NCBI GenBank assembly: GCA_020850575.1 | Contig: JADZEJ010000002.1 | Coordinates: forward strand, 238,511-302,510 | Direction of reading: 5' to 3' | From: Candidatus Uhrbacteria bacterium | GTDB taxonomy: Bacteria > Patescibacteriota > Patescibacteriia > 2-12-FULL-60-25 | DNA: 64,000 nt | Part shown: positions 19,487-28,450 of the stretch, piece after piece | Position numbering within the stretch: position 1 is the first letter of the stretch | How the letters are laid out: each line of letters begins with the position of its first letter | Made by a program: the position numbers and the translations under genes | The notes under the pieces: model-generated | Databases searched by the model: none | Told to the model about the DNA's origin: nothing | Seen by the model: only the letters and a program-made list of their open reading frames with translations

Positions 19487-19506
19487 TAACGCTTTGACCA
19501 CTAAGG
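19487..19506. repeat. attL direct repeat (relic copy of the rpsI 3' end)
   Basis: TAACGCTTTGACCACTAAGG matches 27885-27904 at 19 of 20 positions. Confidence 0.75.
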
Positions 19507-19810: not shown

Positions 19811-20819
19811 AGGATTGCTCTAAGATATTACCTACTGGCTCAGATGCAGACTGTTTTTTATCCACCGATGCATCGAACGATGCCTCAAACACCTTGCGAT
19901 ACTCATGCTCCACATCCGTGTTTTTGTACCCCATATATATGGTGGTCGAACGGATGTTCGCGTGGCCCATCATGACTTGAAGATATCGGAGATTCACGTT
20001 TCTTTTGACGCCAAGAGATGCGAATCCATGTCGGCATGAGTGAGGCGTGATCCGCTTCTCGATACCTAGCTTCGCCCTGGCCGCACGGAACGTCTTTTGA
20101 ACCGCGCTGCGATCCATGCGTTTTGGCTCCGTGGCCGTATTGAAGCTGATGAATAGAGCTTCGGAACCGCTGTCCTTCCGACCAAGGATACGTTCCCTAA
20201 CTTCGATCCAGCGTGCCAGCAAACGATTCGTTTCATCGTCCCAATACACCTCACGCTTGTGATATTTGCACTTAAAAGTCTTTGCAACTGCTTTTCGCTG
20301 GTTCAGATCAATGTCGTCCACGTTCAGATTGAGCATCTCGCCTAAACGCAGACCCGTGTTGTAAAGGAACGCGACGATTGTCTTATCCCGCAATTCCTTG
20401 GGATACATTTCATCGTACAGGTTTAAGATCGCTTTATATTCATGAGGCTCAAGAAACGGATGGGACTCCTTTTCGACACCCTGCGGAACCGGAATGAGAT
20501 CGTCATTGATTTTAACTTTCCCCTGACGATAGAGCCATTTCCACAACGTCCGGAGTGACGTGATGTACAGAGCTCGCGTACCGCCCCTCAGTCCCCGATT
20601 CTCCAGCCAGATGTGATACCTGGAGAGATCGTCGATATCACAATCGGTCAGTACCTTCCCGAGTTCGTTCAGGTACTTGGTCAATGAATAAAGCGCGAAC
20701 TTATAGGACGAGACTGTAGCCGGAGACCGGCTGCCGCCCAGCCAAACGAGGAAACTGTCGATAATCTTATCGTTATCGATCATATAAACCGCCCACCCTA
20801 CTTCCGCCTCGGATTGCAA
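19749..20819 (-). CDS. tyrosine site-specific recombinase (phage integrase / XerC-D family)
   Basis: Motifs NTGLRLGE, HSCRHGFAS and GHANIRSTTIYMGY (catalytic R..HxxR..Y). An alternative start MIDNDK lies at 20783. Confidence 0.9.
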   Translation of the reverse strand: MQSEAEVGWAVYMIDNDKIIDSFLVWLGGSRSPATVSSYKFALYSLTKYLNELGKVLTDCDIDDLSRYHIWLENRGLRGGTRALYITSLRTLWKWLYRQGKVKINDDLIPVPQGVEKESHPFLEPHEYKAILNLYDEMYPKELRDKTIVAFLYNTGLRLGEMLNLNVDDIDLNQRKAVAKTFKCKYHKREVYWDDETNRLLARWIEVRERILGRKDSGSEALFISFNTATEPKRMDRSAVQKTFRAARAKLGIEKRITPHSCRHGFASLGVKRNVNLRYLQVMMGHANIRSTTIYMGYKNTDVEHEYRKVFEASFDASVDKKQSASEPVGNILEQSYVQARKIAAESANREKMFIG

Positions 20820-21065
20820 GCCTTGGCGGTTTCGGATGGGCGGTATTACTACACTCTCACGATATGCAAGAGTCGGACAACCATATCAAAGTTGCCCGAG
20901 AAAGCAATAACCAACCTACCCGCGCCGTTTGCAATGACATCCCATTGGGACGCCGCCCTATTCGGGCACGATGCGGTTAAAGGGTCGGGAATTAAATTAG
21001 TAAGCCCCGACAAGCGGTTGTACCGTAGCTTGGCTTGGGAAAGCAAGCAAATCAGAAATAACGCG

Positions 21066-22067
21066 TTATTTATCAGAAATTAGCCATGCGATGTTTTGAA
21101 CTTTTTCAGATAGCTTATGAGTGTATCCGTGGCTAAGCAGTCCCACGTAAGATGCGACTGTCTGAGCGTTTGGACTCTGCCTCACTCTTTTCAGGATCCT
21201 CGATTTCGTCTTCTGGCGCGGGACGCGATGGTGTGGGAAATGCACCCAGCCGAGAAAATCCACTCCCGAGGCAAGCGTCTTAATGAAGACTTTATTCGGA
21301 TACAGTTCCAAGTCCAATGGTCCAGCGAGAAATGCGGCGATTTTAGGAAGGCATTCGAGCAACTCCTGTCGGTCGCGTGATAAAAATACAAAATCGTCGG
21401 CATAGCGAGCGTAGTATTTCGCCCTCAATTCATGCTTCACATACCGATCAAACTCATTCATGTAAATGTTAGCAAAGATCTGTGAAGTAAGATTGCCAAG
21501 CGGTATACCTTTCCCCGGGCGAGTCTGAAAGCTCACGATGACGCGTCGAAGTAAATCTAGAAGCCACCTGTCTGCGATTCTCCGATCCAAAATCTCGAGA
21601 AGGATTTGGTGATTGATGCTCGCAAAAAATTTCCGGATGTCGCATTTCAAAACCCAACACGTTTTAGTGCCGTTCTTGCTCGCTTTTCTAGACAGCCTCT
21701 CGAAGCGCTCAAGCGCACGATGCAACCCCTTGGTTTTCTGGCATGAAAAAGAATCGAAAATGAACACACTGGCGAAAAATGGATATAGCTTCCGATGAAT
21801 GGCATGATGCAGCAACCTATCCCGCACGGTCGCTTTGTGGATTTCCCGCGGCTTTGGATCGTTAATGCGGAAATGCGAGTAAGTGCCATGGCAATACGTG
21901 CCATTCATCAAATCCAGATGCAAATTCGCGATCTCGTCCCCGAGACGGAGCATGAACTCCTGCACATCTTTCTTCTTTCGTTTCCCTCGGATAAACTCTT
22001 GCCAAGCTTCACATAAATTTTCCATCGATACGATTTCATCGAAGGAGATAAATAATAATTTTCTCAT
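21066..22067 (-). CDS. DGR reverse transcriptase
   Basis: Motifs GIPLGNLTSQIFANIYM (DGR-type xxSQ motif) and YARYADDFVF (YxDD), about 333 aa from MRKLLFISFDE. A TR and VR lie nearby. The ORF track extends to 22145. Confidence 0.9.
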   Translation of the reverse strand: MRKLLFISFDEIVSMENLCEAWQEFIRGKRKKKDVQEFMLRLGDEIANLHLDLMNGTYCHGTYSHFRINDPKPREIHKATVRDRLLHHAIHRKLYPFFASVFIFDSFSCQKTKGLHRALERFERLSRKASKNGTKTCWVLKCDIRKFFASINHQILLEILDRRIADRWLLDLLRRVIVSFQTRPGKGIPLGNLTSQIFANIYMNEFDRYVKHELRAKYYARYADDFVFLSRDRQELLECLPKIAAFLAGPLDLELYPNKVFIKTLASGVDFLGWVHFPHHRVPRQKTKSRILKRVRQSPNAQTVASYVGLLSHGYTHKLSEKVQNIAWLISDK

Positions 22068-22081
22068 AGAGGAGTATGTTA

Positions 22082-22092
22082 CCCCCCCCCCC
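22082..22092. repeat. C11 (G11 on the minus strand) homopolymer between the RT and avd starts
   Basis: Direct count of eleven consecutive C. Confidence 0.9.
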
Positions 22093-22116
22093 GCAAAAAT
22101 CACGTCAAATCTTCCC

Positions 22117-22464
22117 GTGTTGCAGAAGGTTGTTGATGTATACAAAATCTGGCACGCCCATTATTCAAATTTCCCCCGTCTTTCTAAATTTTCACTCGGC
22201 GCAAAAATAGACTCTCTGTTCACCGACCTGATCGAGCTCATCTTTCTTGCCGGTTATGCCGGATCCGATCAAAAATACACGTTCGTAGTACGCGCATCTA
22301 CAAAACTCGATCTACTTAAATTTTTCATGCAGGCCGCATGGGAAGTAAAGTGCTTGGACCAAAGAAAGTACGCGGCACTCGCTGTACCGCTGAACGAAAT
22401 CGGAAAAGACATTGGTAGCTGGCAAAAATTCCTACAAACGAAACAGCCCCCATCCAAAGAATGA
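22117..22464 (+). CDS. avd: Avd-like four-helix-bundle protein (accessory variability determinant family)
   Basis: KIWHAHYSNFPRLSKFSLGAKI...LKFFMQAAWEVKCLD...IGKDIGSWQKF resembles the Avd / 23S-IVS four-helix-bundle family. GTG start at 22117. The 21883-22116 part of the tracked ORF is antisense to the RT. Confidence 0.75.
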   Translation: MLQKVVDVYKIWHAHYSNFPRLSKFSLGAKIDSLFTDLIELIFLAGYAGSDQKYTFVVRASTKLDLLKFFMQAAWEVKCLDQRKYAALAVPLNEIGKDIGSWQKFLQTKQPPSKE

Positions 22465-22493
22465 GGGCGTTCGTTATAAAAACGTGAAGAGAT

Positions 22494-22624
22494 TTGCGGA
22501 CGAACAGGAACCGGTTGTCGGAGTTCCACTCGTTGTCGAACCAGTTGTTGTCGAGGATGCGCCTGTCGGAGTTGCTGTTCAGCATCGCGACGTTGCGGTT
22601 GTCGTCGTACATCGTGGACGAGCC
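22494..22624 (-). repeat. DGR template repeat (TR)
   Basis: 131 nt homologous to 22998-23131. It is adenine- and AAC-rich on the minus strand (9 AAC codons in the VR frame). Confidence 0.85.
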
Positions 22625-22877
22625 GTCCTGTCCGTGTCGGGAGCCATCCAGATCACCACCGCTTGAATCATCTCGCGGTTGAATTTTATTCGGGGCCGTT
22701 AGCCCGCCAGCTCCCAACACCAAGTATCTTCAGTTCATGAACGAGCCGACGCACGCTGCCGACCGGCGTACCGCCCGGCATTCTGGCAAACGAGCTCATT
22801 CAGATTTCGACCGCCTGCAACCGTAATCGCAAGCTGTTTCGTCTACTATCCGTGTGTAATTTTATCAAAAAGCAAGC

Positions 22878-22929
22878 GACCCCGTCCAACGCGCGAATCC
22901 AAGTTTCGGATTGCGTGTCGGACGGGGTC
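22878..22929 (-). other. long GC-rich hairpin downstream of the VR (terminator and/or DGR homing-associated stem-loop)
   Basis: GACCCCGTCC pairs with GGACGGGGTC, with an imperfect interior and an apical AATCC/GGATT stem. A T5 run follows on the minus strand. Confidence 0.6.
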
Positions 22930-22993
22930 TGAGCGCCAAGAGTCCAAGGTCCCAAGAGCCTTTTTAAGGGCCGAGGGACCGAGGGTCCAAGTG

Positions 22994-23659
22994 CTACTTG
23001 CGGACGAACAGGAACCGGAAGCCGGAGCGCCAACCGCGGGCGAACCAGTCGCTGCCGAGGATGCGCCCGTCGGAGACGCTGCACAGCATCGCGACGAAGC
23101 GGTCGTCGCCGTCGTACCGCGTGGACGAGCCGAGAGCGACGATCCAGAACTGACGCTGCAGCTCCGGGTTGGCCTTGGCGAACGCGTACGCCTCGAGGTG
23201 GGTCGCGGGGCGGTAGCCCAGCTTGTCCATCTCAGCGATGGCGTCCTCGGACTCGATCGCCCGGTTGAAGTGCTTGACGAGCATGATGCGCTCGCCCGGC
23301 GTCTGGTCGATCTCGGCGCACGACGAGTGATTCTTCCACTCGTAGTTGCCGTAGAACAGCTCTGACACGCCGTCCTTCGAGAACTCGCTCTCGAGCTTGG
23401 CCTTGTCGCGCGGCATCTCGTAGCTGACCGGCACGCGGTACTCGCCATCGACGAGCGGTCGCTCCATCTCCGAACCGGCCGGGACGATGAGATCTGCGAT
23501 CTGCTTCTGCAGAGCGCTTTCCTTCACCACCCGCCGCAGGTGCTGCATGGTTCCGCCCTTGGCCATGACGGCGTGAGCGATCACCTTGAAGACCTCGAAC
23601 GCGAAGCCGAGATTGCTGAGTACGTCACCGATCGCCTGATCCTTCTTGTTCTGTCGCAT
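22994..23659 (-). CDS. DGR variable (target) protein, C-terminal VR of C-type-lectin-like style
   Basis: ATG at 23659 sits 6 nt after GGAGAG. The C-terminus is ..GSSTRYDGDDRFVAMLCSVSDGRILGSDWFARGWRSGFRFLFVRK. High GC. The tracked ORF starts at a GTG at 23686. Confidence 0.85.
   Translation of the reverse strand: MRQNKKDQAIGDVLSNLGFAFEVFKVIAHAVMAKGGTMQHLRRVVKESALQKQIADLIVPAGSEMERPLVDGEYRVPVSYEMPRDKAKLESEFSKDGVSELFYGNYEWKNHSSCAEIDQTPGERIMLVKHFNRAIESEDAIAEMDKLGYRPATHLEAYAFAKANPELQRQFWIVALGSSTRYDGDDRFVAMLCSVSDGRILGSDWFARGWRSGFRFLFVRK
22998..23131 (-). repeat. DGR variable region (VR)
   Basis: Aligns to the TR with about 22 substitutions at TR adenines, 2 at other bases and one extra codon. The last 20 nt are identical (CGGTTCCTGTTCGTCCGCAA). 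Confidence 0.85.
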
Positions 23660-23790
23660 GGTCGTCTCTCCGTTTTTCCGGCTCACCTCTTAATCCCGCA
23701 CCATGCAGGACCACAAGGCTTGCCTATCCGTGACCGAAGCTAAGTAGACACTTGGAAATGTAAGGTTCAGAACCGTAGTCTGAATAAAAC

Positions 23791-23819
23791 AAGATAGCAT
23801 AAAACAGGCCTTTTGTCAA
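23791..23819 (-). promoter_or_regulatory. sigma70-type promoter for the DGR target gene
   Basis: On the minus strand: TTGACA, a 17-nt spacer ending in TGc, then TATCTT. Confidence 0.55.
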
Positions 23820-23866
23820 GGGATAAACGCCAAAATTTGGCTAAAATATAATATTTCTACGAAAAT

Positions 23867-25550
23867 TTAGCCAATTCTCTGAATTTCTTCAGTTAACACA
23901 CTGCTAATAGCACGTCTCCACTCAGATGCCTCTTGACTATCACGTAGAATGCAACAGCGATCTAGCAAATCCTTCACGTACTGGACGTTAACTTTGTTGT
24001 TAATAAATTGCGCCTCAAAAAATTCCTTAAACTGGATAAGCGTAAAAGGCACGATATTCAATCGAACCCTCTGTTCGTCTTTGTTGAACCACTCACCTCT
24101 CCGAAAAGTTTCGAGAGTATTAATGTCTATCTTATTCGCGATGAATAATCCGTAGACCGGTTTGGTTGTCCGTTCTGCAATCACAGACACATGACGGCGT
24201 ACCGGCTCACCCTCAACCGCCTCCTGTCTTGAACTCTCAGTCAGCGTAACCTCAACCACCAATATAAAATTCTCCAGTTCAAAAATTAAATCCGGTCCGT
24301 TGCCTGGAGCTGTACCAATTGGAAGAAAATCTTGATCAATTTTAAATCTTCGCGCTTCGTATGGTTTATTGATCAAACTATACTATTGCCAGAAAAGCTC
24401 TCCATAAAACCCATTCAAAATACGCAGCCGCTTCAGCTTTAGGAACCTGAATTTGATTGCCTTCGGAAAGGGTGGCGGAACGGAGTTTCCCTGAGATCAA
24501 ATCCATGTACGTTGCGATCTCTTTCCATTCAGCTGCTTGGTCAATCGCATATTTCTCTTCATTGGCACGACTGAGTAATTCCTCAGCTTGGAATCTTACT
24601 TGTCCGATATCCGCAGGCGTCTTTAGCGATTCCTTTTTGACTTCCAGCTTCAAATTTTTATCTTTCAGGCGTTCGAGTAAGTCGTCGAGTACCACCAAAG
24701 CTGAATCCTTATCGTCAGTTGGCAGCGCGGCTCCATTGCAAAGTGCCGTGAAGTAGGCAATTTCAGACTGAGGCATCTGACTTTGCTGAACGAACTTCTC
24801 AATAAATAGATGCTTCTCTGGGATGATGGAAATTCCCCTTCCAGCACCCTGAACCAAACCAGTCGCCTTTAAATAACGAATATTTGTGTCCGCGTAATCA
24901 TTGAACGTCTGCTCTTTATAATCATGCACTACTGAAGCCTTTTCACGTTCAACTCGATCGAATTTACGTTTATTATCACTCGATAATCGACGTGATCGAA
25001 TATCCAAAACGCGATGAACCACTTCACTGAGATCATCGTCGCTATTTGTCAGCTGTGCTACAACAGCCATTTCGATAAAATTGATTCTGCTATCACCGGT
25101 TTCTCTTTCAAGTTCCAACATGATTTTCAAAATATGCTGCAACGGAGAGAATACAGAAAACTCATAGTCATCTTCCAGCACCGATGGTATGACGTAGGCC
25201 GCAAGCGATCTTAAAAAACACTCCTGCATTGCAGGAACCGTCTCTGCTTTAATGAGTCTTAAACCGTTCGGTGTGATTCTATCGACTTCACCAATTTGCG
25301 CCTGATCAATGCCGAGAGATTTTGGGATCTCTGGATACAAAAAACCGAGCTTGGTTAATGCCGATCGCCACTTCCGTCCGACACTATAGGTTTTATCCTC
25401 GCCCAGCTCCACAATGCCATGCTCCCCGAGGAGTTTACGAAATGCAATGTCCTGCTCCTTACCTCGCAAGTTCCCTTGAAGTTCCGATCCATAGAGCGCT
25501 ACAAGGCCATCGCGCAGGCGAAATGGACTGCGGACGGTTGTGTTTCCCCC
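23867..25550 (-). pseudogene. AlwI-family-like type II restriction endonuclease, frameshifted and lacking its own start
   Basis: Has GNTTVRSPFRLRDGL, GRKWRSALTKLGF and YADTNIRYLKATGL. The frame breaks at 24376-24378. The nuclease core continues as PDLIFELENFILVVEVTL...GEPVRRH. The family call is from memory. Confidence 0.55.
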
Positions 25551-26051
25551 GCCATAGGTCGATGACCGAATGATGGAGCGGTACCAAGTCGAACCAATCT
25601 TGAACAGGTACACGCGACCTACGGTGAAGATCGTCGTTTGGTCTCCTGCGATCGTGTGTTGGTTTGCTGCAGAGACGGTCGTGACGGTTGATTGCAGAAT
25701 CATGCCTTGGGTTACCGGTCCGATCTCGATTTGCATGCCGTCAAAATGCGCTTTCGTGAGATGAAGCTCGATGACGGTTCCTGCGGCGTGCGTAGCGGTC
25801 GTCGTGCCGTTGTATCCGCGCGTATCGATTGTGCATGTGACCGTCCCGCCTGAAATCGACATAGCCGAAAGCAAGATCTGTTCCTGCTCAATCGTGAGAA
25901 TCGCCTTGGATCCAGCCGGCATGTTCCACGATTGCGTACCAAGAACGGACGATGAAGATCCTGTGAAATTGCCGGACGTGAGCGAAGAAAGGAGCTGGGC
26001 GTCCAGCAGGAAAGAAGCGCGATCGAGAATGTAGATGTTTTGGTATGGCAT
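25545..26051 (-). pseudogene. phage tail-fibre-like N-terminal fragment (5' part of chimeric ORF 24378..26051)
   Basis: MPYQNIYILD...TRGYNGTTTATHAAGTVIELHLTKAHF resembles phage fibre N-termini. It is high GC, unlike the AlwI-like part. Confidence 0.45.
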
Positions 26052-27883: not shown

Positions 27884-28450
27884 CTAACGCTTTGACCACT
27901 GAGGAGCACGACGTGCACCCTTGAGACCAAACTTTTTGCGCTCCTTTTTGCGTGGATCACGCATCAAGTAGCCAAGTTTCTTTAAAGACTTACGGAAGGT
28001 TGGATTGAGTTCAACTAAGGCGCGAGATACACCGTGTCGAACTGCTTCAGCTTGTCCACGAACACCACCTCCTAATACCTTAGCTGAAATATCAATCGAT
28101 GTGTCTTGACCTGTTACCTTGAGTGGATTCACGATTTGCTCGCGAAGATCATAGGTAGTGAAATATTCTTCAAATTTCTTTCCATTGATGGTGATATTTC
28201 CTTTGCCGTTCTTGATCAAACGAACACGAGCGACAGAGGTTTTGCGACGACCGACGGCTGGAATGAATGAACCGCCTTTGCTAACCTTGGCTGCTTCCAT
28301 TTCGCTTGCTTCAAGGGATTCAAGAGCAACTTCTGGCTCAACAGACTTGGTAGCTGGAGCTTTTTTTGCAGTAGCTTTTTTTGCTGGTGCTTTCTTCTTT
28401 TCTTCCGTCGCTACTGGAGCTTCGGATGTCGTTTTTTTAGTGGTTGCCAT
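27884..28450 (-). CDS. rpsI: 30S ribosomal protein S9 with a Lys/Ala-rich N-terminal extension
   Basis: GRRKTSVARVRL...RDPRKKERKKFGLKGARRAPQWSKR. About 55 extra N-terminal residues. Confidence 0.95.
   Translation of the reverse strand: MATTKKTTSEAPVATEEKKKAPAKKATAKKAPATKSVEPEVALESLEASEMEAAKVSKGGSFIPAVGRRKTSVARVRLIKNGKGNITINGKKFEEYFTTYDLREQIVNPLKVTGQDTSIDISAKVLGGGVRGQAEAVRHGVSRALVELNPTFRKSLKKLGYLMRDPRKKERKKFGLKGARRAPQWSKR
27885..27904. repeat. attR direct repeat (functional rpsI 3' end)
   Basis: TAACGCTTTGACCACTGAGG encodes ..PQWSKR plus part of the stop codon. Confidence 0.75.

Follow-up and report, generated by a model that had tools for sequence, protein, structure and literature searches.

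The question raised by this DGR locus is how its template RNA is made when the avd gene lies, reversed, between the TR and the RT. In the window, by which we mean the whole 64,000-nt stretch of DNA that was analysed, the target gene, VR, TR and RT all read on the minus strand, and avd reads on the plus strand, divergent from the RT and convergent with the TR. An earlier note on this DNA had described these orientations, with 29 nt between the avd stop and the TR end, and all coordinates were confirmed (Table 1). The note had gone on to argue that, unless the TR RNA and the RT mRNA are produced separately, a TR-RT co-transcript has to cross avd in antisense; given the confirmed orientations, this logical consequence is correct. 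Below, the identity of the genes is established first, the layout is then compared with that of relatives, and the two ways of making the TR RNA are weighed against each other.

Table 1. Positions of the genes and of the predicted RNA and control elements of the DGR in the window
Feature	Position	Strand	Remarks
DGR reverse transcriptase (RT)	21066..22067	-	333 aa from likely ATG 22067; ORF 21066..22145, open to TTG 22145 across the G tract
RT/avd gap	22068..22116		49 nt; C11 at 22082-22092 (G11 on the RT strand); on the avd strand, SD-like AGAGGAG and ATG 22076
avd	22117..22464	+	115 aa from GTG 22117; TGA stop 22462-22464; divergent from RT, convergent with TR
Terminator-like hairpin and U-tract	22436..22468	-	hairpin GCCCTCATTC-TTT-GGATGGGGGC (22468->22446), then TGTTTCGTTT; antisense overlap with the avd stop and last codons
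Gap from avd stop to TR end	22465..22493		29 nt
Conserved motif just 3' of TR	22482..22493	-	AAATCTCTTCAC; family consensus CTCTCTTCATTT; 3' strand of H4
TR	22494..22625	-	direct repeat; adenine-specific differences from VR; sole TR of the genome
Structured TR RNA leader	22626..22852	-	~230 nt; covariation; helices mapped on the window
Leader helix H1	22786-88/22750-52	-	
Leader helix H3	22770-79/22758-67	-	
Leader helix H4, 5' strand	22727-35	-	
Leader helix H5	22709-20/22634-45	-	
Leader helix H6	22702-05/22693-96	-	
Leader helix H7	22671-79/22658-66	-	
Promoter-like site for TR RNA	22859..22888	-	TGGACG-18-TAAAAT, TGn before the -10; inferred start near 22852
Target-gene terminator	22865..22929	-	hairpin 22929->22878, then GCUUGCUUUUUGA
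Target gene	22994..23686	-	230 aa from GTG 23686; stop TAG; VR at its 3' end
VR	22998..23132	-	

The genes of the element and their surroundings

The RT ORF matches Pfam RVT_1 at 1.2e-24 in the family scan and the PHROG reverse transcriptase at 3.6e-102, and its translation carries LGNLTSQ and YADD, which are the GxxxSQ motif and the YxDD box of a DGR-type RT. A direct repeat of 115 nt (22494-22608 and 22998-23112) extends to a TR/VR pair of 132 and 135 nt. Compared on the minus strand, the two differ by 23 substitutions, 21 of which are at TR adenines, and by a single 3-nt indel; the VR finishes 4 nt ahead of the target stop. Thus, the locus has an adenine-specific TR/VR pair at the 3' end of an ORF, as is required of a DGR, and the 21 VR differences at TR adenines indicate past activity of the element. 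The protein encoded by the target gene gave no family match in Pfam, NCBIfam or PHROG and no meaningful sequence match in the PDB. The genome, which is 1.04 Mb in 7 contigs, has a single RT, one TR, one VR and a single bAvd match, and no second avd, RT, TR or remote VR was found in it. A second avd, co-oriented with the rest of the element, would have undone the earlier description, and the single bAvd match shows that there is none in this genome.

That the plus-strand ORF is an Avd homolog, as the earlier note had it, is upheld both by family matches and by structure. The ORF matches Pfam bAvd (PF22296) at 1.4e-12 with 48.5 bits, against a cut-off of 40, and the PHROG family 'Avd protein of DGR' at 6.6e-14. 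An AlphaFold model made with 45 homologues has four helices and a pLDDT of 93.8, and the top Foldseek matches of this model include the Bordetella Avd structures 4DWL and 8UB7 with TM 0.74-0.87 and rmsd 1.5-2.3 Å (TM 0.80-0.87 for the 4DWL chains and the best 8UB7 chains). The remaining top matches are S23-family four-helix bundles. It could be argued that the ORF is not an Avd, and that the cassette has no accessory protein, because the NCBIfam DivGenRetAVD match, although it spans the whole profile at 1.6e-18, scores 66.9 bits and so falls below the 80-bit equivalog cut-off, and because a search of PDB sequences with the Avd profile gave nothing at E<=0.01. This argument is refuted by the Pfam score above its cut-off, by the PHROG match and by the high-confidence four-helix model with its match to Bordetella Avd; conserved synteny, described below, also speaks against it. 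We give it next to no credence.

The cassette sits in a prophage-remnant island of the ~1-Mb genome. It lies within a GC-richer segment, roughly 20-28 kb in the window, of about 43-57% GC compared with about 40% in the flanks, and on either side it is flanked by one copy of a 20-nt direct repeat, the two copies being identical at 19 of 20 positions. The segment contains a tyrosine recombinase, a Sak4-like annealing protein, an exonuclease, a fragment of a tail protein (Dit) and a frame-broken AlwI-like endonuclease gene.

A published layout and its relatives

The earlier note called the layout non-canonical. This stands when the comparison is with the Bordetella prototype only; otherwise it does not, because the layout is the published architecture B3 and is common to nearly all of the closest RT relatives. 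[quoted passage not shown] The core order found here is TR, avd and RT with avd on the strand opposite to the TR and the RT, exactly as in B3. The features of the Bordetella-type architecture B1, namely, an avd co-oriented with and upstream of the TR and a spacer of ~140 nt, are absent.

The relatives used throughout were the 80 best tblastn matches to the RT in a species-representative genome collection, at 56-88% identity. All 80 are on Patescibacteria/CPR-type MAG contigs, a few of which carry other bin labels, and on the basis of these best matches, rather than of a formal tree, the RT is assigned to the CPR DGR lineage. These 80 closest relatives sit in TR/VR/avd cassettes. By tblastn, avd is directly upstream of the RT and on the opposite strand in 77 of the 80; two of the other three contigs have no upstream DNA and one, L017, is rearranged. 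At the ~60 loci with enough upstream DNA the TR is on the RT strand at a distance of -8 to +42 nt (mode 6-7) from the avd stop, the TR-VR differences are adenine-only, and the spacer from VR to TR is 233-549 nt with a median of 335. As judged from this comparison of sequences, the reversed avd is the inherited and standard layout of this RT clade and not a local rearrangement.

If, on the contrary, the inverted avd were a local rearrangement, an assembly artefact or the sign of a decaying element, the layout would have no functional meaning. Two observations lend themselves to that reading: the element is in a degraded prophage-like island with a frameshifted AlwI-like gene and phage gene fragments, and the ATG upstream of avd is out of frame at the C11 tract. 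Yet the same layout with the same spacings recurs on 77 independent contigs, the RT and Avd reading frames are intact, the leader helices described below are all intact in the window, and a VR that departs from its TR at 21 adenine positions points to past activity. The comparative data contradict a rearranged, artefactual or decaying avd, which we hold to be very improbable. The locus is most probably an ordinary DGR of the kind seen in the Candidate Phyla Radiation (Patescibacteria), complete in its parts and of architecture B3. The layout itself has thus already been described and is typical of its clade; what is more interesting is the RNA organisation behind it.

The template RNA and the neighbouring transcripts

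We propose that the locus would be expressed as four transcription units: the target gene, the TR RNA, avd and the RT. The target gene would have its own promoter, for which the scan gave a promoter-like site at 23819->23791, and a strong terminator. The fold of this terminator has a free energy of -42.4 kcal/mol and a z of -7.8, which no shuffle equalled, and its position is conserved in the consensus of the relatives. The second unit would be the TR RNA, a self-contained transcript of about 415 nt that extends from ~22852 to ~22437. It would start near 22852 at a promoter of the extended -10 type that directly follows the target terminator, continue through a ~230-nt leader supported by covariation, the TR and a 12-nt motif paired with the leader, and end about 22437 with a hairpin and a U-tract, so that it would overlap the last codons of avd only. 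The third unit would be avd on the plus strand, and the fourth the RT on the minus strand, which would diverge from avd over the 49-nt region with a conserved G/C homopolymer. We infer the transcript ends, the roles of the helices and the independent expression of the RT from the evidence that follows.

The -10 box of the window comes directly after the target terminator (TGATAAAAT, hexamer 22864->22859) and is of the extended type. A -10 box with at least 5 of 6 positions matching, often TGnTAnAAT, follows the T-tract of the target terminator in 47 of 58 relatives, and in 30 of those it is at a fixed 130-159 nt from H5. The ~230 nt between the -10 box and the TR are conserved among relatives. 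RNAalifold, run on 60 loci, predicted 36 pairs, 33 of them with compensatory changes. Pairing was counted over the RNAalifold structure and one long-range duplex, and the controls were 500 shuffles and pairings in which the partners were slid. By this count 92.4% of the cells were paired, compared with 67.9% in the shuffles and 40-50% with slid partners, and the covariation score was 0.70, compared with 0.24 and 0.11-0.17, respectively. The observed values on every measure were reached by 0 of 500 shuffles. A search of Rfam gave no match within 20500-24000 at E<=1.

The long-range duplex, H4, is formed between a leader segment (consensus AAAUGAAGA; 22735-22727) and the motif just after the TR (UCUUCAUUU; 22490-22482). 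It is 81% paired across the 60 sequences and all 9 of its pairs have changes on both sides; in L038, for example, CAUACGA in the leader is opposite UCGUAUG. H4 brackets the TR, and H5 ends just 5' of the TR. All of the leader helices are present in the window, where H4 forms 6 of its 9 pairs. The post-TR motif contains the avd stop codon in most relatives.

The hairpin that follows this motif in the window has a free energy of -20 kcal/mol and a z of -3.6, and was picked up by the terminator scan; with its U-tract it looks like an intrinsic terminator and is predicted to be one. Its conservation was examined at 62 loci, with a hairpin scored when it was -9 kcal/mol or better within 60 nt after the TR and a T-tract when 5 or more of the following 8 nt were T. 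On the TR strand 57 of the 62 loci had a hairpin and 51 had a hairpin with a T-tract, whereas shuffles gave 1.3 and 0.1, the 70 nt after the VR gave 15 and 2, and the avd interior gave 0. The avd strand had a hairpin with a T-tract at 0 of 62 loci. The hairpin keeps its register with the TR end (mode 13 nt), whereas with respect to the avd stop it lies anywhere between -20 and +21, and its stems have widely differing sequences among the relatives. Since the hairpin and T-tract also encode the C-terminal tail of Avd, part of their conservation could be coding. The Avd residues opposite them, however, form an unconserved C-terminal tail, and because of this the conservation is better explained at the level of the nucleic acid. 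A bidirectional terminator shared by avd and the TR was also considered and rejected: on the avd strand two G-U pairs of the window hairpin become C-A mismatches and the T-tract is found at 0 of 62 loci, and in most relatives the hairpin is upstream of the avd stop codon.

The comparative evidence thus makes a separate TR RNA, from promoter to terminator, the most likely arrangement, in preference to a TR-RT co-transcript. The rearranged locus L017 bears directly on this choice. In L017 the block consisting of target, VR, TR and the convergent avd is turned round as one piece with respect to the RT, which leaves the TR and the RT on opposite strands, and therefore a TR-RT co-transcript is impossible there. 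Co-transcription is not required in DGRs more widely either, as the TR and the RT are on different strands in some of them (Wu et al. 2018, PMC5758913).

Canonical co-transcription would nevertheless give a coherent account of the window. A single minus-strand transcript would run from the TR through avd in antisense and into the RT, the post-TR hairpin would be only an Avd-binding stem-loop or a leaky attenuator, the RT would be expressed by read-through, and interference with the avd mRNA would be built in. This account is favoured by the finding that the TR and the RT share a strand in 77 of the 78 loci with a detected avd, by an RT/avd gap of 16-82 nt, which has no room for a normal promoter, and by the co-oriented, adjacent TR and brt of Bordetella (PMC5758913). 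It is also favoured by the imperfect, partly paired U-tract of the window: the tract (TGTTTCGTTT) is weak and pairs back to an upstream ACGAAC, and therefore termination could be partial and read-through could supply RT mRNA. It is at odds, however, with a hairpin and T-tract at 51 of 62 loci on the TR strand and at none on the avd strand, with the opposite strands of the TR and the RT in L017, and with the DGRs noted by Wu et al. (PMC5758913) in which the two are on different strands. Moreover, a transcript antisense to the whole of avd would make about 350 bp of dsRNA with the mRNA of an essential partner protein, and promoter-like sites are enriched just upstream of the RT. Promoter-like hits on the RT strand number 27 in 75 loci at 21-80 nt upstream of the RT start, compared with about 2 per 20-nt bin elsewhere, and the window has one such hit, at 22188->22160. 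The RT may thus have a promoter of its own, but the predicted hits are within the avd coding sequence and are possibly by-products of codon usage, which makes them weak evidence. On balance we consider co-transcription unlikely, though a reading to be taken seriously.

A separate TR RNA also changes what can be said about avd. The earlier note had seen in the layout a built-in antisense coupling between the production of TR RNA and the expression of Avd. Should the TR RNA stop at the predicted terminator, this coupling would shrink to an overlap of the 3' ends that covers the last ~28 nt of avd. In the other direction, the terminator scan found no terminator-like site for avd on the plus strand anywhere in 20700-24000. 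Since avd has no evident terminator of its own before the TR, its transcription could read into the TR in antisense. Antisense regulation between the TR RNA and avd is speculative.

The inverted layout also creates a control region, the gap between the RT ATG and the avd GTG. The earlier note had suggested that promoters be sought in these 49 nt; the scan detected no sigma-70-like promoter there, and the gap is too short for two ordinary promoters. In the relatives promoter-like hits on the avd strand cluster 161-220 nt inside the RT coding region, where they may reflect coding bias, and the window has no such hit at that distance inside its RT coding region. The gap itself contains the C11 tract, and nowhere else in the 64-kb window is there a G or C run that reaches 8 nt. 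Of 78 relatives, 75 have a tract of G6-G15 (mode 9-10) in this position, and the other 3 have (GT)n or (GA)n. On the avd strand the SD-like AGAGGAG and ATG 22076 precede the tract, and GTG 22117 and TTG 22120, both in frame with avd, come after it. With C11, as assembled, ATG 22076 is out of frame with avd, and C12 or C9 would restore the frame. A literature search on homopolymers or phase variation in DGRs found no mention of DGRs among the best-ranked papers.

Comparison with known DGRs and retrons

The closest match among known systems is B3 of Wu et al. 2018 (PMC5758913). The locus shares with it the order and orientation of target-VR, TR, reversed avd and RT, the one adjacent target gene, the CPR host and the VR class, the VR here having no match in the domain libraries searched. 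That study classifies architectures only, and transcription units, a leader RNA, a terminator-like hairpin after the TR and a G tract are absent from its description.

The mechanism has been studied in the DGR of Bordetella phage BPP-1, which is arranged mtd-avd-TR-brt (architecture B1) and whose RNA consists of the avd 3' end, the TR and a 140-nt Spacer (Handa et al., NAR 2018, PMC6182149; bioRxiv 10.1101/2023.10.23.563531). This RNA depends on a stem-loop, just 3' of the TR, to which Avd binds and on a duplex of sequences upstream and downstream of the TR (bioRxiv 10.1101/2023.10.23.563531). According to the same report, the five elements of the spacer are the Avd-binding stem-loop after the TR, a priming strand that pairs with the TR 3' end, a 'cPRT Stop' strand that pairs upstream of the TR, a thumb ring and a bRT-binding stem-loop. 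Putative Avd-binding stem-loops and upstream/downstream duplexes were found there in 207 of 278 Avd-containing DGRs, CPR included (bioRxiv 10.1101/2023.10.23.563531).

By analogy with these elements, the hairpin after the TR in our locus may correspond to the Avd-binding stem-loop, and we infer that H4 fits the duplex that bridges the TR. The elements for RT-Avd docking and for cDNA priming and stop would then be mostly in the 5' leader, rather than in a 140-nt downstream spacer as in Bordetella, and such a location would explain why avd can abut the TR. From this comes a tentative proposal, for which we would claim less than an even chance, that B3-type DGRs use a circularly permuted DGR RNA. 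H4, as the candidate primer strand, and H5, as the candidate stop, would be carried in the ~230-nt 5' leader, and downstream of the TR there would be only the Avd-binding hairpin, doubling as terminator. The permutation would let avd abut the TR convergently, and the avd mRNA, having no terminator, would extend into the TR and hold back the template RNA as a natural antisense brake. No description of a permuted DGR RNA of the B3 type was found in the literature searched.

With avd directly against the TR, there is no place between TR and RT for the 140-nt spacer of the Bordetella RNA plan, which is therefore closed to this very large clade of DGRs. What the comparative data suggest in its stead is a template-RNA gene that is autonomous, about 415 nt long and provided with a folded leader that is conserved. 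If confirmed, this would show a re-wiring of the best-studied DGR mechanism in the most DGR-rich branch of bacteria, and would offer a compact and portable template unit for engineering.

Compared with BPP-1, then, our locus is the same in its adenine-specific transfer from TR to VR, its four-helix-bundle partner Avd, its stem-loop immediately 3' of the TR and its duplex joining sequences upstream and downstream of the TR. It is different in that its avd lies downstream of the TR and is read from the opposite strand, in that TR and RT are separated not by a long non-coding spacer but by 29 nt followed by antisense avd, in that a conserved structured RNA of ~230 nt is upstream of the TR, and in that a terminator-like U-tract follows the 3' stem-loop. 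There may also be a likeness to another kind of element, the retron. Retrons belong to another RT clade, lack Avd, a VR and a target gene, and do not mutagenise adenines. Nevertheless, as in the msr-msd of retrons, the template would be a discrete, structured and promoter-driven non-coding RNA in which pairing of the flanks brackets the region that is reverse transcribed.

The homopolymer tract between RT and avd

The gap between the RT and avd genes of the window holds a C11/G11 tract (see the table), and a tract of G6 to G15 was found at the same position in 75 of the 78 relatives when the gaps of L001-L080, the loci of the 80 best RT relatives, were compared. (GT)n or (GA)n takes its place in L039, L042, and L064. 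An ATG at 22076 with an SD-like AGAGGAG is not in the avd frame at C11 in the window; six close relatives have its ATGTTA-Cn context, and of these six it is in frame with avd in L001 (C15) only.

At the RT side, no ATG, GTG, or TTG start was found either before or after the G tract in the RT open frame of L012, L015, L037, L047, L048, L061, L067, L069, and L075. The RT start in these nine relatives may be non-canonical or may be set by tract length. The sole departure from the common layout, in which target-VR, TR, and RT share one strand and the reversed avd is convergent with TR, is L017 (L017:4100-7010), where the target-VR-TR block and its convergent avd are in inverted orientation relative to RT. 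No G or C run of at least 7 is present across the whole L017 locus.

Sequence elements at avd, the TR leader, and the target 3' end

The final ~9-12 residues of Avd show no conservation at the protein level in the C-termini of the Avd alignment (A3). The stretch encoding this tail (window 22436-22464) forms, in antisense, a hairpin and T-tract that are conserved as structure. The RNA element dictates the Avd protein tail.

The leader, a structured RNA 5' of TR, carries inserts in some relatives. Three unrelated loci, L021, L041, and L059, have in common a conserved ~60-nt insert (CGACCAaTTTtTCTTcACGG...GAAGCACCCTTGTGGTG) in the loop of helix H7 (columns 405-461 of the leader alignment, A2), and both L003 and L006 have a ~30-nt insert (GGTGGGC.AACCCGCCTTCGCTAAAGCTAC) near H5/H6 (A2 columns 311-340), a sequence resembling which was found at another place in L008. 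Each of these inserts could represent either a small mobile hairpin or an RNA domain that is optional.

When the minus strand of the window and the post-VR sequence of L003-L079 were compared, a run of CTTGG/CTCGG/TTTGA-like motifs at ~9-11 nt spacing was seen directly 3' of the target stop codon (cgcaaGTAG) in every locus. The run is not present 3' of TR. One possible role is that of a recognition element on the VR side, by which recipient would be told from donor.

The AlwI-like gene and the repeat-bounded segment

An AlwI-like restriction endonuclease gene (window 23867-26051, minus strand) is broken into two ORFs by a frame break at 24376-24378; a profile search found no endonuclease match in its initial ~230 residues. 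Two 20-nt direct repeats flank a GC-richer segment in which the integrase and the DGR lie together with remnants of phage genes (Sak4-like, exonuclease, and a Dit fragment). This fits an integrated, degraded prophage-like island.

Coordinates of features in the window
Feature	Position	Strand	Remark
C11/G11 tract	22082-22092		RT/avd gap
20-nt direct repeats, TAACGCTTTGACCACT[A/G]AGG	19487-19506 and 27885-27904		19/20 identical
AlwI-like ORF, profile positions 1-317	24378-26051	minus	profile match
AlwI-like ORF, profile positions 321-440	23867-24376	minus	profile match
CTTGG/CTCGG/TTTGA-like run	22930-22992	minus	reads CACTTGGACCCTCGGTCCCTCGGCCC...CTCTTGGGACCTTGGACTCTTGG
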